DNA from: a virus
Taxonomy: Duplodnaviria > Caudoviricetes
Direction: 5' to 3' (one strand)
Virus record (IMG/VR): IMGVR_UViG_3300025663_000002
Location: 13,979-77,978 of that record
Length of the DNA: 64,000 nt
Below the pieces are notes generated by a model, which ran no database searches, was not told the origin of the DNA, and saw only the letters and a program-made list of their open reading frames with translations. Below, piece by piece: positions 4,470-29,031 of this stretch. Position 1 is the stretch's first letter; every line of letters starts with the position of its first letter. A program made the translations under genes and the position numbers.

Positions 4470-4874
4470 ATGAAACCGTTACGCAGAGAAGTCAATAGAA
4501 GATACAAAGACATTGATTTGGATATGATGGTACACCCTCATACCGACGATATCGTAGGACGTTATGACGACGAAGCGTTGACTGGGTCGATCCTTAATAT
4601 CATTAAAACTAGAAAGGGTGAACGTGTGTTTAATCCAGATTTTGGTTCAAATGTATATAATTCTTTGTTTGAACCAATGACTTCTACTACAAGGATAACC
4701 CTTGAGGCACAGATTGAAAATGCATTACATCAACACGAACCAAGGATTAATTTAAATTTTGTCAAAATAATTGGTGACGAAGAACGTAACGCATATAATG
4801 TAACAATAGGATATTCCCCAGTTAGTGGTGGTGGCATACGTGAAGTAGAATTCTTTTTAAATAGATTAAGATAA
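4470..4874 (+). CDS. gp25: Baseplate wedge subunit gp25
   Basis: YKDIDL, IKTRKGERVFNPDFGS, EPRI motifs of the gpW/gp25 family; position before gp6. Confidence 0.93.
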   Translation: MKPLRREVNRRYKDIDLDMMVHPHTDDIVGRYDDEALTGSILNIIKTRKGERVFNPDFGSNVYNSLFEPMTSTTRITLEAQIENALHQHEPRINLNFVKIIGDEERNAYNVTIGYSPVSGGGIREVEFFLNRLR

Positions 4875-4882
4875 GGTGTAAT

Positions 4883-6655
4883 ATGGCACAAAACGATAAA
4901 CAATTAAATGTTTCTGATTTAGAATTTGGTAATATTAAAAAGAACATTAAGGACTTTTTAAGAGACCAAGACACATTTACCGACTACGATTTCGAGGGTT
5001 CTGGTATGTCTGTAATGCTTGATGTAATGGCATACACCACCCACTACATGGGATTCCATGCCAATATGGCAATCAATGAGTCGTTTCTAGACACAGCAAC
5101 ACTTAGAAACTCAGTAGTCTCTCACGCAAAGACTATTGGATATACACCAAGTTCGGTTACTTCTTCCGAGGCAATCATTAAGTTGTCATTTAATACTACT
5201 GGACTTGATCCAAGTTCAATTCCCGTTGAAAAGGGAACTACGTTTACATCTACTGTAAATGGAAACGCATTACAATTCGTTGCTTTAGAAACTGTGAATA
5301 TATACCCAGATGAGTCTGGCGACTTCACTGGTGAAATTAAAGTAAATCAAGGAACATTGAAAGGTCTAGAATGGACAGTTGATGGTACAGATACTCAATC
5401 GTATTTAATTAGAGACGCCGGGTGTGACAGGTCGACTATCGCTTTGGGTATTATTGAACCACCAGCAGACTTTTCAGTTCCGTGGACTAATAATGAATTG
5501 TTGTCGGAACTAGTTCCGTTCTCTCAAGTGTGGTTTGTACAAGAAGGTTTAGACGAAGTTACTGAAATCTATTTCGGTAATGGTATATTTGGCAAAAAAC
5601 CAAAGTTAGGGCAAAAGGTTTCTGTTGTTTATTTATCAACAGACGGAGAAATTGGTAATTATACATCCACACTTAGAGACCAAGTATTTTCATTAGATGT
5701 TGCTATTGGTGGTGATTATGATTCAAACCGAGTTACTATTGAAACTGTTAATGCTTCAAATTTAGGGGACTCTGCAGAATCAACCGAATCTATTAGACAA
5801 ACAGCACCTAAGTCTTACGAAAGGCAAAACCGTGCTGTTACTGCGGAAGACTACAAAACTATTCTTTTAGAAAAATATCCTAATATTGATTCTATATCAG
5901 TTTGGGGTGGCGAAGATAACGACCCACCACAATACGGTGCTGTGTTTATCTCAATCAAACCTAAACACGGACTTGAATTATCTCCAATTACTAAGAATCA
6001 TATTAAAGATGATATTCTTTCTAAGTATAATATGTTAGCAATTACCCCTATTATTGTTACTCCAGAATACACATATATTGATATCGAGACAACAGTTAAT
6101 TACGACCCACTGACAACTTCATTATCGCTCGGTGAGATTCAGAACGAAGTTAGGTCTAGTGTTGCATCATTCTTCGAGAGTGAAATTACAGAATTTAAAG
6201 TTGACTTAAAGTTTTCTAAGATGACTAGAGTTATTGACGATGCAGAAAGTTCTATTACGAATAACACAACTACGTTGAAAATTTATAAGAAATTTTATAC
6301 ACAATCTTCTAATACTATTGGTAATTACATATTCAAATTTAATAATAAATTGAATCCAGGTTCGGTTGTGTCTTCTGTATTTGGATCTACAGTTGATGGT
6401 TCTCAGATGGCACTATTAGACGACGGACAAGGTAATGTATTGCTTTACGATATTATCGCAGAAGGGTTCATTAATACATCACAAGGAAGTATTGACTATG
6501 AAGAAGGGACTATCGAATTGATTGGATTCAGCCCCGTACTTGATAATAATACAGTGATATCGTTGTATGCGACCCCCAAGGTTAATGATATTAGTACAAT
6601 ACGTAATAATCTATTGGTACTAAATAGTACAAACGTTATTGTTAAACCCATCTAA
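4883..6655 (+). CDS. gp6: Baseplate wedge subunit gp6
   Basis: LEFGNIKKNIKDFL, FTDYDFEGSG, FLDTATLRNSVVSHAK, YFGNGIFG, QNRAVTAEDY, WGGEDNDPPQYG. Confidence 0.96.
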   Translation: MAQNDKQLNVSDLEFGNIKKNIKDFLRDQDTFTDYDFEGSGMSVMLDVMAYTTHYMGFHANMAINESFLDTATLRNSVVSHAKTIGYTPSSVTSSEAIIKLSFNTTGLDPSSIPVEKGTTFTSTVNGNALQFVALETVNIYPDESGDFTGEIKVNQGTLKGLEWTVDGTDTQSYLIRDAGCDRSTIALGIIEPPADFSVPWTNNELLSELVPFSQVWFVQEGLDEVTEIYFGNGIFGKKPKLGQKVSVVYLSTDGEIGNYTSTLRDQVFSLDVAIGGDYDSNRVTIETVNASNLGDSAESTESIRQTAPKSYERQNRAVTAEDYKTILLEKYPNIDSISVWGGEDNDPPQYGAVFISIKPKHGLELSPITKNHIKDDILSKYNMLAITPIIVTPEYTYIDIETTVNYDPLTTSLSLGEIQNEVRSSVASFFESEITEFKVDLKFSKMTRVIDDAESSITNNTTTLKIYKKFYTQSSNTIGNYIFKFNNKLNPGSVVSSVFGSTVDGSQMALLDDGQGNVLLYDIIAEGFINTSQGSIDYEEGTIELIGFSPVLDNNTVISLYATPKVNDISTIRNNLLVLNSTNVIVKPI

Positions 6656-6670
6656 TAGATAAAGGTAATT

Positions 6671-9600
6671 ATGTCTAATAAGCAATTCACTGAGTCTCCG
6701 GCTAAGTTTCTTTCTATATTTGTAGAAAGAATGGTTCCCGAATATGTTCGAGAAGACCATCCAATGTTCGTTACATTCATGCAAAAGTATTTTGAATACT
6801 TAGAACGTGAAACCGACGTTAATGGAGAACTGGGTGAATACAAACAAATATCAGACCTTATTCAAAATGTTGATATTGACCACACATTAGACCAATTCAT
6901 TCCAGAATTTGAGAAGCAATATCTCCATAATATCCCACACGAAGCAATTGGTGCTGAGGTTGAAACCACAGATAAATCATTCCTTACTAAGAACATTAAA
7001 GAGTCTTATAAAGAAAAAGGTACTAAAAGTGCTTTGGACTTTCTATTCAGACGTGAATTTGATACAGAAGCGTATGTAGCATATCCTAAAGACTTTATGT
7101 TAAAAGCATCGGGTTCTATTTGGTACGAACCTCAATGGTTAGAAGTATCAGAACCAGAAGAAGATGTAAGGAAACTCTATAATAAGAAAGTGATCGGGCA
7201 AATTTCTGGTGCAACTGCCTTTGTAGATATTGAAGAAACTGCGGTTATGCCAGAAATAGAGAAATTACTTTTGACGCAAGTCGAAGGTTCTTTTGTTCAG
7301 GGTGAAGAAATTTGGGAAGAAGTCGGAACTAGTGGACTAACTCCTAATAAATTAACAGTAGTTTCTGATGGCATTATTGCACCTGCTACTTGTTACATTA
7401 ATGGTGTTGCGTGGAGTACGACTTATGGGGCAAACGTTCCACAAACGAAAACTGCATGTGAATCTTTAAAAGAAACAGACAATACAATTAAAACAGCAGT
7501 TTGGCTGCCTAATGGTTATTGGGTCGACTCGGCAGGTTTCTTGTCTTCTGATAGAAAGATGCAGGACAACAATTACTACCAAGACTTTTCTTATGTAATT
7601 CGTTCAGACGTTCCTGTACAAGCATATAGGGACGTATTAAAGAAATTAGTACACCCCGTTGGACTTAAATTATTCGCAGAATATATGTTTGAGACAACTG
7701 TTCCTATGGGAACAAAATTACCTGAAAAATACGCTGCATATCTTATTGCGATATTCTCTTATCTTGATGTTGCGGTTGATATTTACCCTAACGGTAAGTG
7801 TTCTGATTATCAAATTACAGATGAGATGACATGTAACGATAGTGGAGCAACTTGGACTAGAGGACAAAGTTACCGTACCACTCACCGTAAAACATACGAA
7901 TGGACTAGACCAGAAACGTTTGAGTTACAAGAAGATATTACTATTCCTTGGAACCATATGCGTTCGGACGGAACTACCCGTGAAGATATAGTAAACGGAG
8001 TTCCTCAAGGAAGCGGTCAAGACGAAGTAATATTATCTGGAACGATAATCAATACAACTTTACCTAAAGGTGAAGAACGTTACAGAACAAAAGTTTGGAA
8101 ATGTTCTGAACCAACAGGTAACTACTCTTATGGAAGCGAATCCGAACTACTAGTCGCCAGCACTAATTGTTTTGCGGCTGGAGGAGAGTGGTCACAGCAT
8201 ATTACTGGTTCTAATTATTCGGATATGACCGATGAGTGGATTTTCGTTGATAATCAATGGAAACCCGAGAGCATATACACCAAGAAAGAAACTCAAATTG
8301 GAGAAGAACATGAAGGGTTTGAGAAATTCTTAGACCAAGGTTTTGAAGATTATGTATTAGAGATTCTAAAGAAAACTGAAGTAAAATCTGAAATTTTAGA
8401 ACCATTAGATTGGAATCATCCTACAGACCATCTACTTCTTGACGTTACAACAGAACCTAATGTAATCGGTACTCGACTTCATAGTAAGTTATATCAAGTA
8501 TTCACAATGAATGAAAACATTAAGTTAGGACTTGATGCTTTCCCTGAAAAATTGATATTGGCATATTATCAGCAAATTAAAATTCTAGACACTGAAGTCC
8601 AAGGCGCCTTAGATAATACATTAAATATACGCAGAACCTTTAAAGGAATAAAAGAATATCAAACAACTAATTCTGTATGTTCAGATCCAACAATAACATC
8701 ATACACAGAATGTGTTGATGGAGGAACTTGTTCGGATTCAAATTACAACAACGACGAATATTCTTGTTTAAATGTTGGTTCGTGTTCCAGTGCTGCTGAT
8801 GGGTTATTTACCGAACTATTATGTAAAGGTTCTGGGTTTATATGGACACCACAATCGCCAGAAAACGTTTGGACATCTTCTGGTAATACTTGGACGCACG
8901 AGAATGTAGATTGGTTAGGAACTTATAACGAAGAATTCAAAGCAACAGACGGTCGTATGATTGGTTGTGAAGTTTGGGAATTATTGGTTGCTAAAGGTCT
9001 TGAATCTATCCTTGAATATAACTTAAGAATAGTTCAAGTAGAGTCGTATGCTCCTCAACAAAATTACCGTTTCTGGGAACAGAATAGAGAAAATACAATA
9101 ATTCAATCTATTTACGGTAACACGAATGATATTATCGATGCTGTGCATATTGAAGCGTTTGATGTCGACGGAGGAATACGTACACATATGCACGGGGAGG
9201 TAGATGGATTTGCCCCTATGGTCGACACCGTATTAACTAAAGGTGTAGATTTACCTCAAATGGCAGTCGGTGCTTCTGCGTTCCATACTCATTCGTTTGA
9301 TGGAACAGAATTAAAGAATTTATTAGTACACGGAAAGTCAATAGACGCTAGTGGAATTTCATACCAACAAACACGCGATCTATTAAACCGTGAGGCATTT
9401 GAAATACCAGATTTCCACGGCGCTAACTTAGTTTGTGGTGGTATTATGACTCCTCCTCTATGGGGCGATTGGGTTGATTCAGTTCAAGATCCTCGTTATA
9501 ACGGTGTTGGAGAATGTTTCAATTCTATTTACGAAAATGAGACAGATTGTGTAGGTTTCTACGGTGATCCTATGTTCTGGATGAGTCCTTCGTGTTCCGA

Positions 9601-12600
9601 CCAAGCAAGTGCTGATGAAGCAACGTGTCATAATGTTGGTCATTCTTGGGGATACTTTACATTAGCAGAACTTCCTCCTATGAAAGGACACGTTTCATAT
9701 TTCGTTAAAGGAGAAGTAGTAGATAGACAACGTGGACGTACTGCAGACCCTCTTACTAGAGAACAAGCAAGACAACTAATTGATGGTGATATTGCTTCTG
9801 TAACACTTTACGATAACGTCGGAGCTTTAGATAAAGAAGGAAACCCTACATACGACGAAAATGATATTACTATTGGTGGAACAATTACAAATATTCGTGG
9901 AGAAATTACTAGTGGTCACTATCACGAATATGCTGTAACATATGATGCAGATTGGAAAACTAAACAAGATTGGCGAGGCAACAATTTAACGCACGGGTTC
10001 GTTTACACACCAGTAACTACGTTCTTGTGTTTTAACTATAAACCAGATTTACCTGTTGACGAGACAATCATGGGTGGTATGGATTTCACTGGTCAACCAT
10101 GGCCACAAAATGTATTCATGGATGTTCCAGATTCATACGTTGGAGGATTCTTAAATAATCCAGATATCACATTACAACACAATCAAGTATGGGCTGAAGA
10201 TTTAAACCCTAATGTAGATTGGGTTGAAATATATTCATCTAACTTTATTCAAGATGTTCCTGGTTCGGGTACGATTGACGACTTGATTGGTGCAGAACAA
10301 GTTGGGGTTAATACTGATATTGCTACAATCAAAGCATATCCAAGAATGAATGAAGATTACATCGCATTGATAGACCAATCAGGTTTCATTTATTTACAGA
10401 AGGTGTCTGGTGAATGTTCAGATAATGCTTGGGGTAATAAACAAGATTGTTTAGACCTAGCAGGTATTTGTTCCAATACAACATTTAATAACAATCAAAT
10501 TTTATGTGAAAGTTCTGGTACTTGTTCAGACATCACATTTACTGACGAAACTCTTTGTTTGGTTGATGGTACTTGTTCAGACGGACTACTTCTTACGCAA
10601 TCTACGTGTGAAAGTGCGGGCACTTGTTCAGATGTTTCATATACAGCAGAAAATATATGCACTTCGTCTGGTGAAACTTGGACTCCCGCGGGTAACGTTT
10701 GGTCCACAATAAATAGTTGGAGTTTAGAGACTTGGACTCCTGCAACAAACACGTGGACAGTTCCTGATACAGCACCTTTATTGTTCATGGACTTGACTTC
10801 ATTACAACATGTTATTGGATTAGGTCCGTTTGGGAATTACGACGAACGTGGTGTACTAGGTTTAGCATTCCATCCAGATTATGTCAATAATGGTAAATTC
10901 TACGTTTACTATATGACAGAGCAAGGTGGAGGTACTGGATCGTTTGGATATCCGTTATCTACATCTGTTATTTCTGAATTCACTGCTACTTTTGGTGGTA
11001 ATTGGGACGTTGCTGATGTCACTTCAGAAAGAATTCTACTAGAAATCCCTCAACCAGATATGAACCACAACGGTGGTGAGTTAGAATTCGGTCCAGATGG
11101 ATACTTATACATCGGTTTAGGTGATGGTGGTAATGCTGGCGACACATCAACAACAACAGGTCATGGAGGTCATGGTGATTACGGTAATGCTCAGAATCCA
11201 ACAAACCTATTAGGCAACATTTTAAGAATTGATGTAACGGAAGATACTGTTAATAGTATGCCGTACACAATTCCTGCGGATAACCCATTCATTAATTCAA
11301 TTTATAAAGAAGGTCAGGCAGAAGCACAACCATTCAGACCAGAAATATATGCATACGGATTTAGAAATCCGTGGAGATTTTCTTTCGATACAGACGATAG
11401 ATTGTGGTGTGCAGACGTAGGACAGAACAAATTTGAAGAGGTAAACATTGTTGAAAAGGGTGGCAACTATGGTTGGAGAGTAATGGAATCATATCATTAC
11501 TACGAAGAACAGCAGTCTGTAATCGACCAAATGGCAATTGACTTAGGGTACACCACTACATTAGAGTATTTAAGCGATTTGAAGAAACCTATCCATGAAT
11601 ATTCTCACGGAACTGGTATTTCTGTCTTAGGTGGGTTTGTTTATCGTGGCACAGAAGTTCCAGAATTGACAGGTAAGTATATATTTGGAGATTGGGGTAA
11701 AACTTGGGAAGGCACTAGTGGACAACTATTTGCTTTAGAAGAAACCGTAGCAGGACTTGCTGCGAACTTTAATGTGTTGCCAAATGCAGTTAATGGGGCG
11801 ACGCACAGTCATACATTAACATTAACCACAGCAGAAGTTGACTTCTTACAAGCAAACCCAGGAAGTCCAGTAGTAACAATACAAACAGATTCAGTGCATG
11901 CCGAGTTTTATGTTCATACGTTTACGGTGACGTATAGTTCTGCTGATGGATTGTTCCATATCATTGGACAAACAAACCCAGAAGGTCATGACTTATTAGA
12001 GTTCGATGGTTGGTCTGACGATGTTGGATATAATAGAAGGTCTTTATCTTTCTGGGATCCTGTTACGGAAATTGTAACATTAACCACATTCGACGAATCT
12101 CTTTTAACTATGGGCGAAGATACACAAGGTGAGATTTATTTCTCAACTAGAGTTGGTATTGGCACATTCAGACCGCCTGGTATTGGACCGAATAATACTA
12201 AAATCTTTAAGATTACAGACTCTTATAGTTCAGTTGACGTTCCAAACGCTCCAGCTCAAATTCCAGTAACACAAAAAGCTCATACACATGGATATAAAGT
12301 AACATACAACTTCACCGAACAAATGTTTGAGGTTGTTGAAATTTCTGATATTGAAATGTCAACGTGGGACGCATTTTGGCCAATATGGGAGATTAATGAT
12401 CCAGCTTCGCACGTCCATCCAGTTATTACTGCATGGTCCCATGCAGTTGATGTTGAAATACCATTAGGTTCTTCTGCTGGTTGGCACTTCGACGAGGTTA
12501 CTCAAGAATGGGGACCATACGATATTGGTGCTGATACTGCTTGGGCGCCTCCTTCTGTTGATACTGGTGGTTATGTTACAATTGACGTTGCACCAAACCT

Positions 12601-14818
12601 TGCGGTGTCAATGGCAAATGAATATGGAGTTGAAGGACATTTCCATTACTTCGACGATGTTATTTTAGATTCTTTCGGTACTAATTATGGCAGACGATCT
12701 AACTCATTAAGTCGGGTTGGTGCAGAAATTCTCGCAAACCAAGAAGAAGGTTCTGTTCATACTTTATATTCTTCAATCGTAGACGACGGAACTCGACGAC
12801 ATTATCATGGTTATGATATTACATATTCTTCTGCACAACGTACATTTGTATTAGAAGAAACTGCTGAGTGGGAAGAGGGTGTACGTGATACTGGTGCGTA
12901 TATATTAGTTGGAACTCAAACCCACGAACATCCAACTTCAGTTGACGGACTACTAACGTCTGTTGGTTGGAACGGTGACCCATCATTTGAAGCACCATCG
13001 GCTGTCATCGGTCAGGCAAATGACTGGGACAATCTTAATGGGTCTTTAATTCCTCATCAACATTACTTTAATGATACTGGGTTAGACCAAGTTGGACCTA
13101 ATTCTGACAGAACTGCAGTTTATTTATCAAACACGCAAACAACCGACTTAATTTCGGGTGCTATTGAGAATGTTACATTATATTCTTCAATTTACCAAAA
13201 CCATTACCATGAGTACAATGTAACGTTCGACTCATTAAATGGTTCTTTAGTTATACAAGAAGTAGAACAGTGGGTATCTGCTGACAATCAACAATACTTT
13301 ATTAGAACTCCTGCTGATCACAGGCATCCAGTTTCCGTAGATGGTGTTCCTAGTGGAACTGGATATAATCAGATGATATCTATAAATAGTTTGCCTATAT
13401 TTGATTCTCCAGGTTTCCCTTATCCTGGTGGATCACATCCTCACTTCTTCAACGGCACAGTTGTTGGTCCATTCTCGGACGGCACTATTGAATATTCTGT
13501 TGGGTTAAGTGTTGATCAATCGTATAAGTTGATTGATGGTATAATTAATCAAGTTACACTTTATGACTCTATTTCTGGTGGACATTTTCACTCGTATGTT
13601 GTTAAGTGGGACGATTTGAATAATATATTCTATTGTACAAGTTCAGTTACATACGTTCGTGGTGGAATTGAAGACGCAACACAAGATACTGGTAAATATT
13701 ACCTATCGCAAATTCTAGGACCATCTGAAGGGTTGCATTGGCACAACTTAACGATTGACTGGAATCCAAATAATGAGGCAGTAGCACAGCAAAGTGGTGG
13801 TTCTATTTACCAAACAAACATAGCAAGTTCATACGAAACGTTAGTCAATCCTCCTTCAGTTGAAGTTAATGTTAATACAACAGCATTATCTCCTGTATCT
13901 ACAAGTTACCCAGATACACCGAGTGTTGGTGACAACACAACCATTATAACGTACAGTGATTTGACAACTACGACAACGACGACAACGACTATCACAAACG
14001 TAACAGAAACTATTACAACTAATATTTCAGACGGAACAAGTTCTTCTACAGTATTACCTCCAGTAGTTTCAACGGATGTAGATGTTGTGCAATCAACTCT
14101 GACGATTGAAAATGAACTCAAACGTAAGACATTTGTTAATAATATACTACAAGTTAATAATGCACCAACTATATGGATTGGCAATACATTTATTGACGGT
14201 GAAGGTTCTCATGATCATTTACTATACCAAGGTTGTTCTTTAGATACACAAGGACCGTTCTCGGGTAGAATGTGTGAACCAATTACCTTGGCAACTGCTA
14301 ACTTATTAATTAATGCGCAAGACCCTACTTTTGGAACAATTTTTTATGATTCTCCCAACGGCAACTTGTCGCATTATCATAGTTACTCGTTGAAGTTTAA
14401 CCCTTTCTTAGGTGACGACGGAACGTTCCTTGCTTTACCAATTAGTCAGTTTGATAGATTCCCTGGATCGGGTACGAACGTTCATAAGTTTATGTTAAGT
14501 GGTGGTTTCCACACCCATACATATTTCTTAACTGAGGCAGAATATGCTACGTTAGTTGGAGGAGGTTTGGTTCAAACCTCCCAAGCAGACGCTATTCACG
14601 CAGAACTATATACGCACACTTTAGTAATTAGACTTGTAAATTTCCAATATCAAATTGTATCTCAGTCGTCGGACTTTGATAACCACGATACCGTAATATA
14701 TCAAGGCATGGTTGCTGAGGGTGGACAATGGATTCAAAATCAACAAGGTTCTGGACTAGGTGACCATATTCATTCTACTACGATAGACGAATCGAATATA
14801 TGGCCTGTTCCAGCATAG
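6671..14818 (+). CDS. gp7: Baseplate wedge initiator gp7-like N-terminus fused to a very large accessory region (Cys/Trp modules, GSDH-type beta-propeller, HxH repeats); 2715 aa
   Basis: gp7 motifs VPEYVREDHPMFVTFMQKYFEYL, YKEKGTKSALDFLFR, QDNNYYQDFSYVIRS, LVHPVGLKLF in the first ~340 aa; synteny gp6-gp7-gp8. Confidence 0.88.
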   Translation: MSNKQFTESPAKFLSIFVERMVPEYVREDHPMFVTFMQKYFEYLERETDVNGELGEYKQISDLIQNVDIDHTLDQFIPEFEKQYLHNIPHEAIGAEVETTDKSFLTKNIKESYKEKGTKSALDFLFRREFDTEAYVAYPKDFMLKASGSIWYEPQWLEVSEPEEDVRKLYNKKVIGQISGATAFVDIEETAVMPEIEKLLLTQVEGSFVQGEEIWEEVGTSGLTPNKLTVVSDGIIAPATCYINGVAWSTTYGANVPQTKTACESLKETDNTIKTAVWLPNGYWVDSAGFLSSDRKMQDNNYYQDFSYVIRSDVPVQAYRDVLKKLVHPVGLKLFAEYMFETTVPMGTKLPEKYAAYLIAIFSYLDVAVDIYPNGKCSDYQITDEMTCNDSGATWTRGQSYRTTHRKTYEWTRPETFELQEDITIPWNHMRSDGTTREDIVNGVPQGSGQDEVILSGTIINTTLPKGEERYRTKVWKCSEPTGNYSYGSESELLVASTNCFAAGGEWSQHITGSNYSDMTDEWIFVDNQWKPESIYTKKETQIGEEHEGFEKFLDQGFEDYVLEILKKTEVKSEILEPLDWNHPTDHLLLDVTTEPNVIGTRLHSKLYQVFTMNENIKLGLDAFPEKLILAYYQQIKILDTEVQGALDNTLNIRRTFKGIKEYQTTNSVCSDPTITSYTECVDGGTCSDSNYNNDEYSCLNVGSCSSAADGLFTELLCKGSGFIWTPQSPENVWTSSGNTWTHENVDWLGTYNEEFKATDGRMIGCEVWELLVAKGLESILEYNLRIVQVESYAPQQNYRFWEQNRENTIIQSIYGNTNDIIDAVHIEAFDVDGGIRTHMHGEVDGFAPMVDTVLTKGVDLPQMAVGASAFHTHSFDGTELKNLLVHGKSIDASGISYQQTRDLLNREAFEIPDFHGANLVCGGIMTPPLWGDWVDSVQDPRYNGVGECFNSIYENETDCVGFYGDPMFWMSPSCSDQASADEATCHNVGHSWGYFTLAELPPMKGHVSYFVKGEVVDRQRGRTADPLTREQARQLIDGDIASVTLYDNVGALDKEGNPTYDENDITIGGTITNIRGEITSGHYHEYAVTYDADWKTKQDWRGNNLTHGFVYTPVTTFLCFNYKPDLPVDETIMGGMDFTGQPWPQNVFMDVPDSYVGGFLNNPDITLQHNQVWAEDLNPNVDWVEIYSSNFIQDVPGSGTIDDLIGAEQVGVNTDIATIKAYPRMNEDYIALIDQSGFIYLQKVSGECSDNAWGNKQDCLDLAGICSNTTFNNNQILCESSGTCSDITFTDETLCLVDGTCSDGLLLTQSTCESAGTCSDVSYTAENICTSSGETWTPAGNVWSTINSWSLETWTPATNTWTVPDTAPLLFMDLTSLQHVIGLGPFGNYDERGVLGLAFHPDYVNNGKFYVYYMTEQGGGTGSFGYPLSTSVISEFTATFGGNWDVADVTSERILLEIPQPDMNHNGGELEFGPDGYLYIGLGDGGNAGDTSTTTGHGGHGDYGNAQNPTNLLGNILRIDVTEDTVNSMPYTIPADNPFINSIYKEGQAEAQPFRPEIYAYGFRNPWRFSFDTDDRLWCADVGQNKFEEVNIVEKGGNYGWRVMESYHYYEEQQSVIDQMAIDLGYTTTLEYLSDLKKPIHEYSHGTGISVLGGFVYRGTEVPELTGKYIFGDWGKTWEGTSGQLFALEETVAGLAANFNVLPNAVNGATHSHTLTLTTAEVDFLQANPGSPVVTIQTDSVHAEFYVHTFTVTYSSADGLFHIIGQTNPEGHDLLEFDGWSDDVGYNRRSLSFWDPVTEIVTLTTFDESLLTMGEDTQGEIYFSTRVGIGTFRPPGIGPNNTKIFKITDSYSSVDVPNAPAQIPVTQKAHTHGYKVTYNFTEQMFEVVEISDIEMSTWDAFWPIWEINDPASHVHPVITAWSHAVDVEIPLGSSAGWHFDEVTQEWGPYDIGADTAWAPPSVDTGGYVTIDVAPNLAVSMANEYGVEGHFHYFDDVILDSFGTNYGRRSNSLSRVGAEILANQEEGSVHTLYSSIVDDGTRRHYHGYDITYSSAQRTFVLEETAEWEEGVRDTGAYILVGTQTHEHPTSVDGLLTSVGWNGDPSFEAPSAVIGQANDWDNLNGSLIPHQHYFNDTGLDQVGPNSDRTAVYLSNTQTTDLISGAIENVTLYSSIYQNHYHEYNVTFDSLNGSLVIQEVEQWVSADNQQYFIRTPADHRHPVSVDGVPSGTGYNQMISINSLPIFDSPGFPYPGGSHPHFFNGTVVGPFSDGTIEYSVGLSVDQSYKLIDGIINQVTLYDSISGGHFHSYVVKWDDLNNIFYCTSSVTYVRGGIEDATQDTGKYYLSQILGPSEGLHWHNLTIDWNPNNEAVAQQSGGSIYQTNIASSYETLVNPPSVEVNVNTTALSPVSTSYPDTPSVGDNTTIITYSDLTTTTTTTTTITNVTETITTNISDGTSSSTVLPPVVSTDVDVVQSTLTIENELKRKTFVNNILQVNNAPTIWIGNTFIDGEGSHDHLLYQGCSLDTQGPFSGRMCEPITLATANLLINAQDPTFGTIFYDSPNGNLSHYHSYSLKFNPFLGDDGTFLALPISQFDRFPGSGTNVHKFMLSGGFHTHTYFLTEAEYATLVGGGLVQTSQADAIHAELYTHTLVIRLVNFQYQIVSQSSDFDNHDTVIYQGMVAEGGQWIQNQQGSGLGDHIHSTTIDESNIWPVPA

Positions 14819-14889: not shown

Positions 14890-15978
14890 ATGGGTGCAAT
14901 TGTAACCAGTAAATTTAGAACTCAGAACTTGATGGTTTTCATCGACCAGTTTAAAACCACTGGTGTTGCGGCTGATGATAACTTCTTGTACTTAGGATTC
15001 GGACGTTCGGAAGCATGGTCGGACGACGTGAACGGAAACGACGAATCAAACGGTAACTTTATCTTACCAGACCCTCTTGACGAGGACGAGGCAAGATATT
15101 GGGCAGATATCGTTGGAGCAAAACGTATTCAGGACGATGATATTTCTCCTGTACTTCCTCGTATTGACTGGGACAACGGTGACCCGTATGCATTTGACGG
15201 TTCTGAAGGTGTAACAGGTATTCCTGACGCAGGTCGTTCATTTATCTCTATTGTTGGTTCTCATTCTATTGCAATGAATACAGAATACCGAGTGTATGAA
15301 TGTGTGAAAGAGCCTGGTGGAGCATATTGTGACAACTACACAAGCAATAGTGCAACTGATTGTGCTGCAGCTGGTGCGACTTGGACTGCAGAAACAAGTG
15401 GTTTTGGTAAATGTTACATTGGTGGTTCTTATTCAGCAATTCAAACAGATAGAACAACTTGTGAATCAACTACTGGTGGACTTTGGTTACCAAACGCTGC
15501 TTCTAATAGTCCTACTGGTGCGACTGGTGACACTCAACAAACCGTTGCTCAAGTAATTGACACATTAGATGGTTATGTATGGAAATACCTATACAAATTA
15601 GAACTAAACGACATTATTAACTCAACTACTAACGACTGGATGCCTGTAATTTATGGTGACGCGGTTCTTGCTGGTTCTGAGCAAGCAGTGTTTGGTGATT
15701 CTAATGCGATCTTCTCTGCTAAGTGTCATCATGGATTGATTCACGTTCGCCTTGAAACTAGTGACGGTTTCCCTGATAACGATGACTTCCGTCAAATTGG
15801 TTTACTACGTAATCCAGAGTTAGACGGTGGTGGTTCTAAAGCGCAGTCTTCTGTGTATTCTGATGCTACTTTATCTTTAGAAGAAAATACTGGACAGTTG
15901 ATTTATTTGGAAAACAGACGTGCGATTACTCGTGCCCCTGACCAAATTGAGGACCTGAAACTTGTAGTAGAATTCTAA
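14890..15978 (+). CDS. gp8: Baseplate wedge subunit gp8 with a Cys/Trp-module insertion
   Basis: MGAIVTSKFR, YLGFGRSEAW, YRVYEC, DGYVWKYLY, DDFRQIGLLRNP, GQLIYLENRRAITRAPDQIEDLKLVVEF. Confidence 0.93.
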   Translation: MGAIVTSKFRTQNLMVFIDQFKTTGVAADDNFLYLGFGRSEAWSDDVNGNDESNGNFILPDPLDEDEARYWADIVGAKRIQDDDISPVLPRIDWDNGDPYAFDGSEGVTGIPDAGRSFISIVGSHSIAMNTEYRVYECVKEPGGAYCDNYTSNSATDCAAAGATWTAETSGFGKCYIGGSYSAIQTDRTTCESTTGGLWLPNAASNSPTGATGDTQQTVAQVIDTLDGYVWKYLYKLELNDIINSTTNDWMPVIYGDAVLAGSEQAVFGDSNAIFSAKCHHGLIHVRLETSDGFPDNDDFRQIGLLRNPELDGGGSKAQSSVYSDATLSLEENTGQLIYLENRRAITRAPDQIEDLKLVVEF

Positions 15979-22023: not shown

Positions 22024-25000
22024 ATGTCACATTATACAAACTCATCGTTTACATTAGACGAATTATTAAAAATCGACCAACAGAAGGAAGACTTTTTAGA
22101 TTCTTTGACCATTAAACTTTCAGACCCAGCATTGGGAATTAAAGACTTAGCATTGATGCTGAAATCTTTGGAGATTATGGATAATATGGAGCATTTAAAC
22201 GCTTACCGTCAATTCATTATCAACCTTGCTAATAAGTCTGCTGACTTTACCACTCCTAACGAACTAGTAAACAACGGTGACATTTCTATTGAATATATTA
22301 CAAGCAATATTGTACAAAACCCTAATTTTGATTCTGACGCATTAGAAGTTGAAATCGCCAAATCTTCAAACTTCGAAGTAGGAACTGACATTGCAATGCC
22401 TTGGGCAAACGGAACTACGTATAAATTCGATACATTAATTGCAGAAGGAACTAATATTATCTCAGGAATTTCTGACGGTAATGGCGCGACAGCAGTTTGG
22501 TTTAATTCTACACTAAAACCTAATACACAATACAAATTATCATATGATTTAGTTATTAATGATGTTGGTTGGGACTTACCTAACGGTGCTAAGAACATGG
22601 TGGACGTTCTTTCTGAAGATGAAATGGTATTCTCGGAAAGTGGTGGTGGACCAGACCCAATAACATATGTTGTATCTGTAGTTGAAGATGCAAATATGAT
22701 ATTACCTACTTGTGATGGAGTCATTGTACCATTCGACACCTCAATCCCGGATTATAACAACGCGTTTCCTGCTATGGAACTCGCTTGTACTGGTTCTGGT
22801 GGAGTTTGGGTAGAAGGTAACATTAACGACCCACTTACACAAAATCACGACATTATTCCATACAACGTAGTTGCTCGTGAAGGTGATACATTAATCTTTA
22901 CAAACCCTTCGACAAACTACTTATTACACAATGCAGTATCCGACGACAACATCTCATTTACTTCTCCTGATATGCCGCCTGGATCTAATTGGTCTTGGGT
23001 TGTTGACGGATACCATGATATTTACTTCCATTGTACTTTCCATCCATTAGAAGAAGGAAGGTTACTTACTAAAACTGACCATAGATACGTTTACAATATC
23101 GACCACGGGTTGAATAAAGGTGATACAGTTAGAATGCCTATCAACTATGGTACTATGGAAGAACTACCTTCTTTATCAAATTCATACTTCATTAGTTTGC
23201 AAATGGACAACCCATGTACCTCAATTGGTGGTGTTGGTAGTCAAACGAACATAGAATCGTTATACCACAACTTATCTATTGGTGACGTTGTTTCATTCCA
23301 ATCTGGACCAGAAAACGTCACAGATACATCAAGTTCGGTTGATGTAACATTTTCGGGAGGAAACGCCACACTTGAGGCACAGGCGTCGGTTGTTATTCAA
23401 AATGGTATTGTAACATCAATTGCGTTAGAAGATAACGGAACTTGTTCAAACACAATATACTCAGACGAAGCAACTTGTGTTGCCAACTCAGAAACTTGGA
23501 CACCACAATTAGCGGTAGGTGCTGGATATGAATCTGCTCCATTATTATTTATCGCCGGTGGTGGCGGTTCTGGAGCTACTGCAATAGCAACATACGACGG
23601 TCGTGTAGTTTCTACTATCAATATAAACTACGGTGGTGGTGGTTATACATCACAACCTACTGTACAATTTACAGGTGGTGACCCAACTACTCCTGCAACA
23701 GCAACTGCCAATTATGACGCAGCCACTGGGCAAATTAACAGCATTACTATTACGGACTCTGGTGTTGGATACCAAACAACCCCAACCATTACTATTGTTG
23801 GTGGTAATCCAACCACAGCAGCTCTGTTTGAATGTTCTATATCTGGTTCTATATCTGCGGTTACATTAACAGCAGGTGGTTCTGGTTATGGTTCAGACGG
23901 TTCGGTGATTTTTGGAGAAAAGGCATGGGAAACGTTTGAAATTTCTGCTGTTGTAAAAGGACAAGAACAAGTTGACATTTTCCTAGACGACGTGAACCAA
24001 ATGGGACATATTCATACAGTCACTATGACTACTGCACAGTTTGATAATGTTAAGTTAGGAAATAACGAAGTTATAGCAACGAACGCAGATAATACAGGAC
24101 ACTCTCACGATTGTACATTTACTTGGGACTTAACTCTAAACGGAGGACTTGGCGGAATTTGGTTAGTCGGAATGACTGGCAACCACACGCACGGATTAGA
24201 TGTATATAACGAAGTATCTGGTGGTACTAAAATTGAATTAGTAAACTTCGGTCATTATCATGAAATTCTGATCACCGAAGCAGAAGAAGCAACACTAAAG
24301 GCAGGTTTGCTAATTGTGACTGGTGATAACCCAGACGGAACTACTGCGCATGACGGAACTGGTGTTGTTATGACTAAAACGTCAGACTTTGGTACTTCAG
24401 ATCCTCAGCATTTCCATACAGTTGAATTTGGTTGCGTTGATGCAGTAAATGATGTTTACGCAATTACTGTAATTGATCAACACATCCATGACTTTGGTCG
24501 TGTTTGGTATCCTGGATCGTTTAGTTTCTCAATATCACAATGGAACGACGGTTCTTCTAGTGCTGGAAGTAACCCAGCCTTTATTGAACTGCCTTTTGCG
24601 GATATTCCTGGTTATGTTAAGAAAGAAAAGGGTATATATTCTATAAATCACGGGTTGGTTCAAGGTCAACGAATACATTTCCAGAACATTTTTAATGGAA
24701 TTCATCATGGTAATACAAACTATTGGGTAGAATCTGTAATAGACGCAGATAATGTTTCTGTTACAGAAACAATTATTTATCCTCTTGCAGGTGCTCCAGG
24801 AACTACTCCTACTATTCATAATGTTATTGAAGAGTACACGGTTGTTGCAGACTTAGCATCGTACAGATTCCAAGTTGAAAGAGATATTACAAACCACATT
24901 GGTTCTGCTTACGTAGAAGGTGTGCAGATTGAATGGTCTAGACCTAACACAATTGAATCAAACTTACACGGATTAGTTGTTGGTGATGTTGTACAGTTGC

Positions 25001-28000
25001 CTTCTGGTCCTCAACCTTACACTCCATCAGAACTTCCTGGTGCTATGCGTGACCATACAGTTATTGCTATTGGTGATGGTTATGGTCCTACTGAACATAT
25101 GGAAATTATTGTTGATACGCAAACTACTATTACGTTTGCTGATCCAAACCTTTCTGTTGTTGAAGGTGCTCAGAACTCTCCGTGGTATTGGTCTTGGTGG
25201 GACAGAACCGCTGCATCATATGCTCCGTATCAAAGAGATGAAGCAGTTTACCAAAGTTTTGGTGACGTAACACTATACGACAGTATTACTGGTGAAAAGG
25301 CTGGTTTTGAATTATTCCGTGGTGGTACATACAAATTTACAAATAATGCATGGAACCCTTCTGGACATATTACACAGATTGACCCTTCAACGGGCAATTT
25401 AGTTCCTATGTACATGCACGCTGCTGGTATTAAAGCAATTCCAGGTGCAGGTTGGGACAACCTAGTACAAGCAGGTATGACACATAGTGCATGCCAAGAT
25501 GGTGTATCAGGCCTCGACCATTATCATTGTGTATCAATGAGAGCGAACCACGGTCTAACTATCGTTTCTGGTGACCATAACCCGTTTGTTAATACTACCG
25601 AAGAGCCTGGCACGTGGGTTGGTCCCGAACCTTTCCCAGTTTGTATGGGACTTGGTGGTTGGTGTGAAGAACTAGACGTTGACGGTTGGTACTATAATGG
25701 TATTGACGATGAGTCTGTGTGTTCTGCACTTAACCCAACGGGCGATGTTGGTTTGGCACAATGGAGAGGTCCACAATTTATTGGTAACTTCTCTAAAGAA
25801 TTTACATGGACAGTTCCTGAAGACTTTGGTCTTACTGGTGCTGACGGTGTTACTGGACTTGGTCCGTTTGTTGCTCCAGGTGAGTTAAACTTAGCATACC
25901 ACGTTGAATCATACCAAGGACTATATAAATTTGATAAGTCTGGTATGATTGAAGGAACAAACCCTATTATTAACATATACCGTGGTGGAGTTTACAGATT
26001 TAGACTTAATGCTCCTGGTCACCCTTTCTACATCACAACCGACAACGGATCTAACTTTACTCCTGGTTCATACTTCGGTGAGTACACTAACGGTGTTGTT
26101 GGTTCTCGAGCTGTTACTGGTTACGGACCAAACGAAGGTGTTACTGGTCAATTTGGTGACGACGACGTTGAAGTATTAGAATTTACAGTTCCTATGGACG
26201 CACCCGATACGTTATATTATCAATGTGAGTTCCATTCATCTATGATTGGTACGTTAAATGTTATAGATTTACCTATTGTTGATGCAGGTGATGAAATTGT
26301 AGTTTACTACCATCACGGACAAGATAACATGTGGACTCCATTATGGATTAAGGACAAGATTGTTGTAGACAACGGTTCTGGTCCAAACTTCTTCCAAGTA
26401 CAACCTATTCCTGAGAATTCGTTCCCAGTGAAGGGAACTCAGGCGGATGTTACTGGATTAGGTAACTTGATTACTGGTTATGGTGCAGGAGCAATCCCTA
26501 AAGCACAGGCAATGGATATTGAATTCGGTTCACTTTCATACTTAGACCCAGTCGCCTTGACCGCCGGAATTGGTCAAGAGACATTCTTAACCACAACTGG
26601 ACTTGTTGGTACTAGTAAATTCTATATCTCATTAGATGATACAGAACGTTCTAATATTGAAATGACTAATGTGTTGTTACAAGAAGCACCTTGGTCGGAA
26701 AATGGTTCTTTCGAAATTAGTGCAGGTCAGGCATTTACTACTGACGCGGTTGTTGGTGGTAATATTGAACAAATCGTAACAGGTTCTGTCATTGACGGTG
26801 ACCAATATGAAGTTGGTTATGAAATCATTGAAGGTTTTGTTGATCAATTTGGTGGTAATTCTGGTACTGTTCAACTGTCGTTAATTGGTGACACTACGGT
26901 TACTGGTAACTTTAACACAGACGCAGGAATGTACTCTGAAACGTTAATTGCTCCAGTTAATACTACACATATGAAACTTACTGCAAGTGGTGCTGGTAAA
27001 GTAGATAACGTTTCACTGAAGCAACGTGTATCAGGACAAAATGCTTGGTATCTTGGTGATGGTTGGACTGTTAATACTGATGGTCAAGCGTATTGCGACG
27101 GTTCTGTTCAAGGACGTACTGAAATCAATCAGACTGTTAATATCCAAGAAGGTAAATTGTATGAAGTTAAATATACTTTAGCAAATACTGACCCAGAAGG
27201 TGATGGTTCTCAAGGACGTTTACAATTAGCATTGGGTACTAACCCATACAACTTAATTTCTAATTGGAATTTTGATGCTAGTGGTATTAACATCAATTGG
27301 AATTCACCAGGAAGTGCATACACAATAGATAGTGCAAATGCTAGGTTGAATTTTGAAAACTCAAATGCCGACGGAATTACTTACACTTTCACTGATAACT
27401 TAAATAACATAGTTGATTATGAAATTACTATGGAAGTGTTATCAGTAACAGGTACGGTTCATAATTTCCAAGTTGGACCTGGACCTCAGGCAAACCATTA
27501 TCATACTATCGATTTGCAACAGTCGCAGTATGACTTTATGATTGCCAACGAAGGTTCTTCTCTTACATTGCAACAGTCTGATACTACTCACGCTGCTTAT
27601 TATACGCATACGTTCTCTCTTGCGTTTGATAGCACAGTAGAAACTTGTACTATGCAATTGGGTTACTCGCAAGATAATATGTGTTTCCTTAATGACGGTA
27701 CTCCAGATCCATCAAATACGACATCTACGGATTGTTTATCTGCTGGAAATACTTGGATTCCAACACAACCTAACTACGACTATTCTTGTTCGTTTGTTGA
27801 TTTTGATAACCTACAAAACGGTATTACTAATCAATTAACAATGACAGAATTGACGCAAGACGGTGGTGCCGGATTACCTGCTTCTGATGTTCATAATATT
27901 GTTCTTGGATTTGCTAATGGAGTTCTAACGGTAATATCAGACGAAAATGATATTGCATATGACGAAATTACATTACTTACAGCAGATTCTGGTATTATTA

Positions 28001-29031
28001 TTACTTCTCAGACGTTCTTAGAAGGTCATGATGAGATTATCAAAACTGGTATTACAACTACTAATTCAGATATGACAGTTTCATTAGGTCAGGGTGCTAA
28101 TATGGTAACTGGACCTATGGTTGATTCTGTAGGTTTACATAACTTCGTTCTTTCTGGTGCCATTGGTAATACAATTACTATTAACACTAACGGTTCTGGT
28201 ATCATTGGTTCTATTAAGATGAAAGAAGTTCAAGTTCCTGTACTAGACCATCATTCTACTGGTGTTGTAAATGAAGGTGAAAAGACATACTTCATTCGTG
28301 CTGGTGGTTATGATACTAAGTTACACTTTATTGGTGATGTGGACAAACGTCCAGTAGAAACAGATATTCCTTTCTACTACAGCAGAGGTTTCAAAGGTTC
28401 TATCGATACAGTTACAGTTAAAGAAGTTAATGAAAATTGGACTTTTGCTTCTGAAGAAGGTGGTAGTTCTTACATCGATAATGACAACGGTGTAATTGTT
28501 ACTAATGGTACTGATGAAGCACATAGAGGTATTGCTCATATTTCGTTTGACGTAGTTGAAGGAGATAATTATAAATTATTCTTATCTGTTGATAGACCTA
28601 CTAGTTCTGTAATTAAGGTTGGACCTGCACCTGACAATAACCAATATGGTGAAATGTTAATTGCTGATTCATCTAATGATTCTAACCCTACCGCTCATAG
28701 AGATATGGTGTTTACTGCTGGTGCAACTGGAGTGTGTTACTTAACTCTTGCGACTACTGGTAACGGTTTTACTTACTGGGATCAAGTTTCAGTTAGAACT
28801 ATTCCTAACCTTTCTTCTGACGAATACCTATTGTTAGGTCGTGCGTTGAATGTGTTTGGTATGCCGATCGGTAGTGAGTCTAGATGGAAGCAACATAATA
28901 CAGATTCAGAAAACCTTGACTTTAATGGTCGTGTGGTTGCTGGATTTAGAACTTTAGAAAGTTTTGGAGAGAATGTTATTGAAACGTATTACGATGATGT
29001 TGATGAGGTTATTGATAATACACCAGTTTGA
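22024..29031 (+). CDS. Large fibre/adhesin-like virion protein (2335 aa) with cupredoxin-like, HxH, carbohydrate-binding-like and Gly-rich GxGY repeats
   Basis: HN...HCTFHP and GHPF...YYQCEFHSSMIG cupredoxin-like motifs; GGGYTSQPTV/GVGYQTTPTI repeats; several NxxF...W jelly-roll-like segments. Confidence 0.85.
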   Translation: MSHYTNSSFTLDELLKIDQQKEDFLDSLTIKLSDPALGIKDLALMLKSLEIMDNMEHLNAYRQFIINLANKSADFTTPNELVNNGDISIEYITSNIVQNPNFDSDALEVEIAKSSNFEVGTDIAMPWANGTTYKFDTLIAEGTNIISGISDGNGATAVWFNSTLKPNTQYKLSYDLVINDVGWDLPNGAKNMVDVLSEDEMVFSESGGGPDPITYVVSVVEDANMILPTCDGVIVPFDTSIPDYNNAFPAMELACTGSGGVWVEGNINDPLTQNHDIIPYNVVAREGDTLIFTNPSTNYLLHNAVSDDNISFTSPDMPPGSNWSWVVDGYHDIYFHCTFHPLEEGRLLTKTDHRYVYNIDHGLNKGDTVRMPINYGTMEELPSLSNSYFISLQMDNPCTSIGGVGSQTNIESLYHNLSIGDVVSFQSGPENVTDTSSSVDVTFSGGNATLEAQASVVIQNGIVTSIALEDNGTCSNTIYSDEATCVANSETWTPQLAVGAGYESAPLLFIAGGGGSGATAIATYDGRVVSTININYGGGGYTSQPTVQFTGGDPTTPATATANYDAATGQINSITITDSGVGYQTTPTITIVGGNPTTAALFECSISGSISAVTLTAGGSGYGSDGSVIFGEKAWETFEISAVVKGQEQVDIFLDDVNQMGHIHTVTMTTAQFDNVKLGNNEVIATNADNTGHSHDCTFTWDLTLNGGLGGIWLVGMTGNHTHGLDVYNEVSGGTKIELVNFGHYHEILITEAEEATLKAGLLIVTGDNPDGTTAHDGTGVVMTKTSDFGTSDPQHFHTVEFGCVDAVNDVYAITVIDQHIHDFGRVWYPGSFSFSISQWNDGSSSAGSNPAFIELPFADIPGYVKKEKGIYSINHGLVQGQRIHFQNIFNGIHHGNTNYWVESVIDADNVSVTETIIYPLAGAPGTTPTIHNVIEEYTVVADLASYRFQVERDITNHIGSAYVEGVQIEWSRPNTIESNLHGLVVGDVVQLPSGPQPYTPSELPGAMRDHTVIAIGDGYGPTEHMEIIVDTQTTITFADPNLSVVEGAQNSPWYWSWWDRTAASYAPYQRDEAVYQSFGDVTLYDSITGEKAGFELFRGGTYKFTNNAWNPSGHITQIDPSTGNLVPMYMHAAGIKAIPGAGWDNLVQAGMTHSACQDGVSGLDHYHCVSMRANHGLTIVSGDHNPFVNTTEEPGTWVGPEPFPVCMGLGGWCEELDVDGWYYNGIDDESVCSALNPTGDVGLAQWRGPQFIGNFSKEFTWTVPEDFGLTGADGVTGLGPFVAPGELNLAYHVESYQGLYKFDKSGMIEGTNPIINIYRGGVYRFRLNAPGHPFYITTDNGSNFTPGSYFGEYTNGVVGSRAVTGYGPNEGVTGQFGDDDVEVLEFTVPMDAPDTLYYQCEFHSSMIGTLNVIDLPIVDAGDEIVVYYHHGQDNMWTPLWIKDKIVVDNGSGPNFFQVQPIPENSFPVKGTQADVTGLGNLITGYGAGAIPKAQAMDIEFGSLSYLDPVALTAGIGQETFLTTTGLVGTSKFYISLDDTERSNIEMTNVLLQEAPWSENGSFEISAGQAFTTDAVVGGNIEQIVTGSVIDGDQYEVGYEIIEGFVDQFGGNSGTVQLSLIGDTTVTGNFNTDAGMYSETLIAPVNTTHMKLTASGAGKVDNVSLKQRVSGQNAWYLGDGWTVNTDGQAYCDGSVQGRTEINQTVNIQEGKLYEVKYTLANTDPEGDGSQGRLQLALGTNPYNLISNWNFDASGININWNSPGSAYTIDSANARLNFENSNADGITYTFTDNLNNIVDYEITMEVLSVTGTVHNFQVGPGPQANHYHTIDLQQSQYDFMIANEGSSLTLQQSDTTHAAYYTHTFSLAFDSTVETCTMQLGYSQDNMCFLNDGTPDPSNTTSTDCLSAGNTWIPTQPNYDYSCSFVDFDNLQNGITNQLTMTELTQDGGAGLPASDVHNIVLGFANGVLTVISDENDIAYDEITLLTADSGIIITSQTFLEGHDEIIKTGITTTNSDMTVSLGQGANMVTGPMVDSVGLHNFVLSGAIGNTITINTNGSGIIGSIKMKEVQVPVLDHHSTGVVNEGEKTYFIRAGGYDTKLHFIGDVDKRPVETDIPFYYSRGFKGSIDTVTVKEVNENWTFASEEGGSSYIDNDNGVIVTNGTDEAHRGIAHISFDVVEGDNYKLFLSVDRPTSSVIKVGPAPDNNQYGEMLIADSSNDSNPTAHRDMVFTAGATGVCYLTLATTGNGFTYWDQVSVRTIPNLSSDEYLLLGRALNVFGMPIGSESRWKQHNTDSENLDFNGRVVAGFRTLESFGENVIETYYDDVDEVIDNTPV

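Follow-up and report, generated by a model that had tools for sequence, protein, structure and literature searches.

A remodelled HHIP-like beta-propeller within a predicted gp7-like baseplate wedge protein of uncultured marine T4-like phages

A giant baseplate gene with an embedded propeller

The stretch of DNA analysed here (the window) comprises 64,000 nucleotides (nt), positions 13,979 to 77,978 of the IMG/VR record IMGVR_UViG_3300025663_000002, a viral record of 78 kb with a CheckV completeness of 43%. It contains a giant open reading frame (ORF) at 6671-14818, predicted to encode a baseplate wedge protein comparable to gp7 of phage T4, and, embedded in this protein, a beta-propeller of the GSDH family, the family of the glucose/sorbosone dehydrogenases that use pyrroloquinoline quinone (PQQ). 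The N-terminus of the ORF matches the Pfam family Baseplate_wedge (PF23786, 29.6 bits for a cut-off of 27) and the PHROG family ‘baseplate wedge subunit’ (phrog_17744, E = 1.1e-51), and by tblastn the ORF matches baseplate wedge subunit or initiator genes of distant T4-like phages. Judged from PF23786, phrog_17744 and the gene order gp25-gp6-ORF-gp8, its product is a predicted gp7-like protein. The features of this ORF on which the analysis turns are the following.

6671..14818, plus strand: predicted gp7-like giant baseplate wedge ORF (P0001), 2715 amino acids (aa) (ORF translation, PF23786, phrog_17744, tblastn)
6671..7720, plus strand: N-terminal wedge-core region, residues 1-350, where the PHROG and Pfam wedge matches are located (41-67% identity across the family)
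10778..11767, plus strand: first part of the propeller, canonical blades 2-5 and the first strand of blade 6, residues 1370-1699 (Pfam, alignment A1, model strands, VIA-align)
11066..11068, plus strand: His1466 (HNGG), counterpart of His144, the proposed general base of soluble glucose dehydrogenase (sGDH) (hhalign of A1 with YliI, and YliI with 1c9u; invariant in 102/102 sequences)
11363..11368, plus strand: Arg1565-Asn1566 (FRNP), counterparts of sGDH Arg228-Asn229 (same alignments; invariant in 102/102)
11768..12088, plus strand: His-rich insert in blade 6, 107 aa, residues 1700-1806 (A1; present in 23/23 phage and 0/79 cellular sequences)
12089..12211, plus strand: second part of the propeller, last three strands of blade 6 (SLLTMGED, EIYFST, KIFKI), residues 1807-1847 (A1, model strands, alignment with the HHIP motif GEDxxGE(I/V)Y)

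An earlier reading of the window, made from the sequence only, had proposed a GSDH-type propeller at 10774..12155 on the strength of eight motifs. All eight were found in a single frame, within residues 1392-1824 of the ORF (nt 10844-12142). The Pfam search that this reading had called for returned GSDH (PF07995) over residues 1391-1673 with E = 7.3e-32 (111.4 bits for a cut-off of 25), the match spanning positions 47-276 of the 332 of the profile, and a six-frame search of the record gave the same family at 116.1 bits without any stop. Such scores lie well outside the range of chance. We place the domain at about nt 10778-12211 (residues ~1370-1847). The end proposed earlier therefore cuts off the last strand, KIFKI (nt 12197-12211). 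An AlphaFold2 model of residues 1340-1860 (pLDDT 83.1, pTM 0.86) shows five canonical blades and superposes on HHIP, aldose sugar dehydrogenase (Asd) and sGDH with Z scores around 30 (28-31, VIA-align); model strands 471-477, 483-488 and 504-508 make up the second part of the propeller.

Recurrence of the fusion in viral genomes

The in-frame fusion of a propeller to a wedge protein, which had seemed unexpected from the sequence of the window, is real and conserved across related viral loci. The exact protein occurs on 63 contigs, the longest of 146 kb. Among long proteins, 30 further clusters share 60-75% identity over the domain, 26 of them carrying both PF23786 and PF07995 and the remaining four, which are shorter, PF07995 only. 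IMG/VR contains 31 loci that code for the domain (60-86% identity), each of them within an open frame of 1489-3088 aa. Of these loci, 24 have gp6 upstream and 29 have gp8 downstream, the exceptions falling at contig ends. A motif-profile scan of the same database recovered these 31 loci and two unrelated large GSDH proteins (L116:1096-4482 and L117:1690-5385), one with three Calx-beta domains and GSDH, the other with GSDH and a weak purple-acid-phosphatase N-terminal-like match. A tblastn search of 50,697 GenBank phage records found no GSDH domain in a structural protein; its only matches, four ‘Acinetobacter phage MD-2021a’ contigs with a free-standing yliI-like gene, are not comparable (26-27% identity).

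These results bear directly on the trivial explanation that the propeller is a mis-joined fragment of a cellular gene, created during assembly or by cellular contamination. The closest stand-alone relatives of the domain are indeed cellular, at 47-52% identity, and the viral record from which the window derives is metagenomic, with a completeness of 43%. But the recurrence of the protein on 63 contigs and of the same in-frame architecture in 31 independent viral loci refutes an assembly chimera, the GC content is even along the ORF and the frame has no stops. We consider this explanation extremely improbable.

Affinity with HHIP and cellular relatives

To place the domain we used an alignment (A1) of 102 sequences, namely the window, 22 distinct phage homologues and 79 of 120 listed stand-alone cellular relatives; of the 31 phage loci, we dropped eight exact duplicates and L003, which is nearly identical. 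Searched against PDB sequences with phmmer, the phage domain had human HHIP as its best match (6.3e-27), followed by sGDH (4.6e-14), 3DAS, 3A9G and YliI (2G8S). The A1 profile likewise gave HHIP (1.6e-68), then 3A9G (1.6e-28) and sGDH (1.7e-28). The NCBIfam family of PQQ glucose/sorbosone dehydrogenases, TIGR03606, scored 73.3 bits, below its cut-off of 434.55, and the closest cellular relatives remained below this cut-off as well (81 and 85 bits). At the structural level, the top Foldseek match of the model was the C-terminal domain of HHIP with heparin (7pgm_A, 3.9e-18). VIA-align superposed the model on the same chain with Z = 30.7 and a root mean square deviation of 3.0 Å over 323 aligned residues at 31% identity, on Asd (3a9g) with Z = 30.4 (296 of 338 aligned) and on sGDH (1c9u) with Z = 27.7. 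In the phmmer alignment the phage domain and HHIP also have in common the last-blade motif GEDxxGE(I/V)Y. Within the GSDH family, the phage domain falls in the HHIP-like branch and not among the proven PQQ enzymes.

HHIP and its HHIP-like kin (3HO3, 2WFX, 7PGM) are thus the best solved match in both sequence and fold. Unlike the phage domain, HHIP has a complete six-blade propeller accompanied by EGF domains, carries a His-Asp pair, has no insert and is an animal signalling protein instead of part of a virion. With the sGDH of A. calcoaceticus (1C9U), the Asd/YliI of E. coli (2G8S) and the Asd of P. aerophilum (3A9G), the phage domain shares the Pfam family, the fold (Z 27.7-30.4), equivalents of His144 and Arg228/Asn229 and the motifs NYGW and DNPF. 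It differs from them by an identity of only 20-27% in structural alignments, by its TIGR03606 score far below the cut-off and by the lack of blade 1 and of the RxR motif of the last blade. Moreover, these enzymes are periplasmic and free-standing, whereas the phage domain is embedded in a structural protein of 2715 aa.

This placement is unfavourable to one of the two roles suggested by the sequence-only reading, that of an active oxidase of host surface sugars. In such a quinoprotein, the domain would bind PQQ and Ca2+, the cofactor being supplied by a PQQ-producing host or scavenged, and would oxidise an aldose of the host surface or capsule, with electrons passing possibly to a His-rich metal module. 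Apo-enzymes of the GSDH-type family, such as E. coli YliI, do scavenge PQQ. Against it stand the membership in the HHIP-like branch, with 73 bits for TIGR03606 where 434 are required, and the absence of an electron acceptor chain from the virion; in addition, we know of no member of the HHIP-like branch shown to use PQQ, and surface polysaccharides offer few reducing ends. PqqD (PF05402), the only pqq family looked for, was not found in any of five partial phage records (27-69% complete), which counts only slightly against an active enzyme. On the whole, an active quinoprotein appears unlikely.

The closest stand-alone relatives are cellular proteins of secreted type, 400-530 aa long and 47-52% identical to the phage domain, several of them from metagenome-assembled genomes of Thermoplasmatota, and they carry the automatic name ‘PQQ-dependent sugar dehydrogenase’. 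A tree of 114 sequences groups the 23 phage domains in one clade (SH-aLRT 100); the main phage clade acquired the domain once, from a cellular, secreted-type relative at this level of identity. The 79 cellular relatives have 121 columns with a conservation of 90% or higher; 89 of these columns persist in 90% or more of the 23 phage sequences, and these 89 are common to the marine Thermoplasmatota and bacterial HHIP-like proteins (P0007, P0035, P0061). These relatives differ from the phage domain in having signal peptides, a complete blade 1, blade-6 arginines and no His-rich insert.

A second lineage of gp7 (P0166/L034, 2821 and 2860 aa; L034:3974-12556) also joins a PF23786 wedge protein to an HHIP-like GSDH propeller with HNGG, FRNP, DVGQ and NYGW. 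Here, unlike in the window, the propeller sits at the extreme C-terminus, is complete and insert-free, and is 40% identical to that of the window; this type of propeller occurs in only 1 of 51 related viral loci. In a quick tree, P0166/L034 and the main phage clade come together, at a join flagged as a meeting of long branches.

Within the main clade the propeller is under strong purifying selection. Residues 1401-1650 form the most conserved stretch of gp7, with an identity of 0.64-0.75 across 32 full-length members as compared with 0.41-0.67 for the N-terminal wedge core, and the 60-75% identity of the propeller is comparable to that of gp6 and gp8 (63-69%).

Conserved residues of the central pocket

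The His of HNGG and the Arg of GFRNP had been said to lie at positions that are catalytic or PQQ-binding in soluble PQQ sugar dehydrogenases, and the alignments agree. With hhalign, A1 and E. coli YliI pair NHNGG with GNHFGG, FRNP with IRNP and GGNYGW with GKNYGW, and a further phage stretch of 12 residues pairs with YliI EHGPRGGDEINI. In turn, the HMMER alignment of YliI with 1c9u makes the His of GNHFGG residue 144, the RN of IRNP Arg228-Asn229 and HGP Gln246-Gly247-Pro248. Via YliI, H1466 is therefore the equivalent of sGDH His144 and R1565 that of Arg228. In sGDH, the general base is proposed to be His144, with Arg228/Asn229 placed next to the ketones of PQQ (PMC6881810; this and the other papers are cited from excerpts of their text). 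The 102 sequences of A1 show no variation at H1466 and R1565, nor at N1566, D1582-Q1585, E1589, E1590, N1599, G1601, W1602, Y1644 and H1646. The glycine of the calcium loop is kept, phage DVGQ aligning with sGDH EQGP.

The invariance of the catalytic His and of the Arg-Asn pair that flanks the PQQ quinone, together with the retained calcium-loop glycine, speaks for the active quinoprotein. Nevertheless, it does not prove catalysis, because HHIP-like proteins of invertebrates (sea star and clam) retain the same His, Arg and Asn, and the His is conserved even in HHIP, in which several PQQ ligands are missing according to an excerpt of the paper on the AA12 enzymes (PMC4133262). In the phmmer alignment, vertebrate HHIP has His-Asp where the phage has Arg-Asn. 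That the phage retained Arg-Asn, although the non-enzymatic vertebrate HHIP lost it, suggests from the sequences compared that the pocket may be in use.

A missing N-terminal blade and a modified last blade

The sequence-only reading had referred the motifs to a six-blade family and spoken of a PQQ-type enzyme fold. An intact six-blade fold is not borne out: blade 1 is missing by sequence, as seen from the Pfam match, the alignment and a dedicated hidden Markov model (HMM). Cellular relatives carry about 45 residues of the type ‘VIAEGFNSPLYATHAGDGSNRLFVVDQIGIIYIIEN’ ahead of PFLDL...YDERG, whereas in A1 all 23 phage sequences begin at LLFMDL...YDERG, without that N-terminal blade. The PF07995 match starts at profile position 47 of 332 in the window as against position 6 in the complete L034 propeller. 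In the trimmed VIA alignments, the first target residue covered lies at 39-71 for the bacterial and archaeal chains and at 255-256, in HHIP numbering, for HHIP. Run on all window ORFs of 50 aa or more, the blade-1 HMM gave no match above noise (best E value 2.1), and it recovered the L034 control at 1.7e-18; a blade 1 encoded elsewhere in the window was accordingly rejected. A circular permutation, in which the tail of the insert (residues 1775-1812) would be a displaced blade 1, is also unsupported (hhalign E = 0.58, one aligned column).

The last blade is modified as well. Arginines present in cellular relatives at the positions of residue 1699 (70/79) and residue 1809 (55/79) are not conserved in the phage, and the RxR motif of Asd has no phage counterpart, its RIRDV facing SLLTM in a MAFFT alignment. 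In sGDH, the carboxylates of PQQ are held by basic residues of the last blades, Lys377, Arg408 and an arginine equivalent to CcPDH Arg621 (PMC6881789, in excerpt). The evidence leans towards a phage domain devoid of these ligands; this we infer and do not observe, because the last two blades have no statistically supported alignment to sGDH or Asd (HMMER and hhalign stop earlier). Three features argue against a standard PQQ pocket: the missing blade 1, the loss of the two blade-6 arginines and the His-rich insert in the same blade. The first two weigh, with the missing RxR counterpart, against the active quinoprotein, in favour of which it can be said that AA12 enzymes bind PQQ through a different set of ligands (PMC4133262, in excerpt).

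The His-rich insert and its copies

The insert lies between strands one and two of the last blade. In the alignment of this region (A2), H1712, H1714 and H1743 are invariant, and conservation reaches at least 90% for H1749, H1773 and D1774. Related modules were found at two further places, listed here with their coordinates.

14477..14713, plus strand: second His-rich module, C-terminal area of gp7, residues 2603-2681 (phmmer 2.3e-9; family HMM, independent E value (i-E) 7.8e-8)
27487..27648, plus strand: copy of the His-rich module within a neighbouring ORF of giant size, 22024-29031, which has a gp10-like connector match, phrog_677 (hmmsearch, i-E 6.2e-13)

ORF 22024-29031 holds a further match to the module (hmmsearch, i-E 5.8e-4). 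The module measures about 80 aa and follows the pattern HxH ... HAE ... YxH ... HD; its sites in the window include 23977-24216. It is rare, with 16 representatives among 1.84 billion proteins at E of 0.001 or less and four at 1e-10. Pfam annotation of the 15 representatives besides P0149 (P0256-P0270) revealed no more than isolated domains, of which several seem to be artefacts of composition. Modelled alone, the insert reaches a pLDDT of 85; it found no convincing solved fold (best VIA-align Z 3.5 over 48,161 chains, best Foldseek E 0.7), no usable match in the ESM Atlas and no Pfam match. The module probably binds a metal. Three related phages show a further complication: a Cys-rich ‘CSD’ repeat is nested in the His-rich insert, an insert within an insert (L012:6985-7506, L013:6230-6763, L025:3777-4328).

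A more elaborate enzymatic scenario can be built on this module. The His/Arg/Asn pocket would hold a quinone, either PQQ or a different one, taken up from host or seawater, and the His-rich module would hold a metal, the two forming a redox device of the baseplate for the oxidative modification or cleavage of host surface polysaccharide; the module, with its five conserved His and one Asp, would replace part of the propeller rim. Fungal AA12 PQQ dehydrogenases offer a parallel, in that they pass electrons to copper-dependent polysaccharide oxygenases. We regard such a device as very unlikely.

Possible roles in the baseplate

Taken together, we favour the reading of residues ~1370-1847 of gp7 as a domesticated HHIP-like GSDH propeller that serves as a conserved ligand-binding module of the baseplate, its ligand being most probably a glycan; we give it about an even chance. 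After acquisition, the propeller was remodelled by the loss of the N-terminal blade and of the two blade-6 arginines and by the gain of a His-rich, probably metal-binding module of about 107 aa in the last blade; the residues of the central pocket (His1466, Arg1565, Asn1566, the DVGQ...EE loop, NYGW and His1646) remained frozen. Six copies per virion would be carried on the long C-terminal extension of gp7, presumably at the periphery of the baseplate, where the retained pocket would bind a carbohydrate of the host envelope during adsorption or baseplate triggering, without PQQ-dependent turnover.

We favour ligand binding because pocket residues that drift in the non-enzymatic vertebrate HHIP are frozen in the phage, because there are precedents in HHIP and in the Gp45 protein of phage phi11, and because the second gp7 lineage adds a terminal propeller. 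HHIP is a case of non-enzymatic, ligand-binding use of the GSDH fold, its propeller-bearing C-terminal domain binding heparin (PMC8660895, in excerpt). The receptor-binding protein of the S. aureus phage phi11, Gp45, which depends on teichoic acid, includes a beta-propeller located in the baseplate and implicated in the recognition of cell-wall sugars (PMC4901313, in excerpt); it differs from the present case in being a trimeric receptor-binding protein of a siphovirus, with a five-bladed propeller of another family and without GSDH homology. Of the two roles proposed earlier, a sugar-binding adhesin would fit the sequence data better than an active oxidase.

Several observations weigh against this preference. 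The propeller is the best-conserved part of gp7 and the receptor-binding parts of phages are usually variable, a situation that would suit an enzyme or an internal docking hub equally well. Cellular and invertebrate relatives retain the invariant residues too, and these may serve fold stability instead of ligand binding. The position of the domain in the virion is read by analogy from T4 gp7 only. Lastly, AA12 enzymes bind PQQ without several of the bacterial PQQ ligands (PMC4133262, in excerpt), and therefore the missing arginines are compatible with PQQ binding.

The unusual conservation of the domain for a receptor-binding part makes a structural role a serious rival. The propeller might be a rigid platform for protein-protein contacts in an enlarged baseplate, for instance one to which the giant fibre or connector proteins of the downstream genes are anchored, with no glycan or small-molecule ligand. 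In agreement with this idea, the propeller, as the best-conserved region of gp7, keeps the same evolutionary pace as gp6 and gp8, vertebrate HHIP binds a protein ligand with the same fold (according to PDB entry titles), and the His-rich module common to gp7 and to the giant ORF 22024-29031 could mark a shared assembly interface. However, the Arg-Asn pair that drifted to His-Asp in vertebrate HHIP is invariant in 23/23 phage sequences, and the terminal propeller of P0166/L034, found in 1/51 relatives, looks like an add-on peripheral module and not like a core assembly part. A docking hub is accordingly a possibility that we retain with some doubt.

Gene neighbourhood and identity of the phage

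The predicted gp7-like ORF lies within a T4-type succession of baseplate and head genes, with gp25, gp6, the giant ORF, gp8 and more giant structural ORFs, followed by sheath, portal, scaffold and major capsid protein. The neighbouring baseplate genes are these.

1074-2129: gp5-like hub gene
4470-4874: gp25-like gene
4883..6655, plus strand: gp6-like baseplate wedge gene, directly upstream of the gp7-like ORF (phrog_219, 5.9e-160)
14890..15978, plus strand: gp8-like baseplate wedge gene, directly downstream of the gp7-like ORF (phrog_977, phrog_438)

The major capsid protein is ~50-55% identical to those of the Pelagibacter phages HTVC008M and Mosig, the Methylophilales phage Melnitz and cyanomyophages, from which the phage would be an uncultured marine T4-like myovirus; megablast found no DNA-level match among GenBank phages.

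Outside the propeller, residues 1-1249 and 1861-2715 of the gp7-like protein had no solved relative at E of 0.01 or less in a phmmer search of PDB sequences, a single-sequence search being too weak at such distance. Across the family, the hypervariable parts of gp7 are Cys-rich insertions (residues 401-550, 651-750 and 1251-1350) that occur in less than 30% of homologues. Residues ~1860-2400 and ~2510-2600 (nt ~12250-13870 and 14210-14480) consist of repeats of ~130 aa with three HxH motifs each, such as GHFHYF, HYHGYDITY and HEHP. Further along, inside the structural module, a tryptophan-halogenase-like gene (37469-38989; phrog_2928, 1.3e-99) adjoins the gene at 35690-37408, of the unknown-function family phrog_1458 (1.1e-162).

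Significance

Phage tail and baseplate proteins pick up cellular domains that bind or degrade carbohydrates. For a GSDH/HHIP-type propeller, or PQQ, in a phage baseplate, no relevant report was found in the excerpts of full-text literature retrieved. Here, such a propeller is fixed in an entire clade of marine T4-like phages that are abundant and uncultured, and its rebuilding is unusual, one blade having been deleted and a rare His-rich module inserted. If the domain binds a host glycan, it would represent a natural conversion of an enzyme fold into a lectin, parallel to that of animal HHIP, and would provide a handle for finding the hosts of these phages. If PQQ is still used, the protein would be a new kind of virion enzyme, and a redox device of the baseplate would be the first oxidoreductase known to act on a phage tail. 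The finding also matters for the cellular HHIP-like branch, in which thousands of proteins bear the label ‘PQQ-dependent sugar dehydrogenase’ by automatic annotation; the phage propeller reveals the residues that remain essential while the rest is rebuilt.

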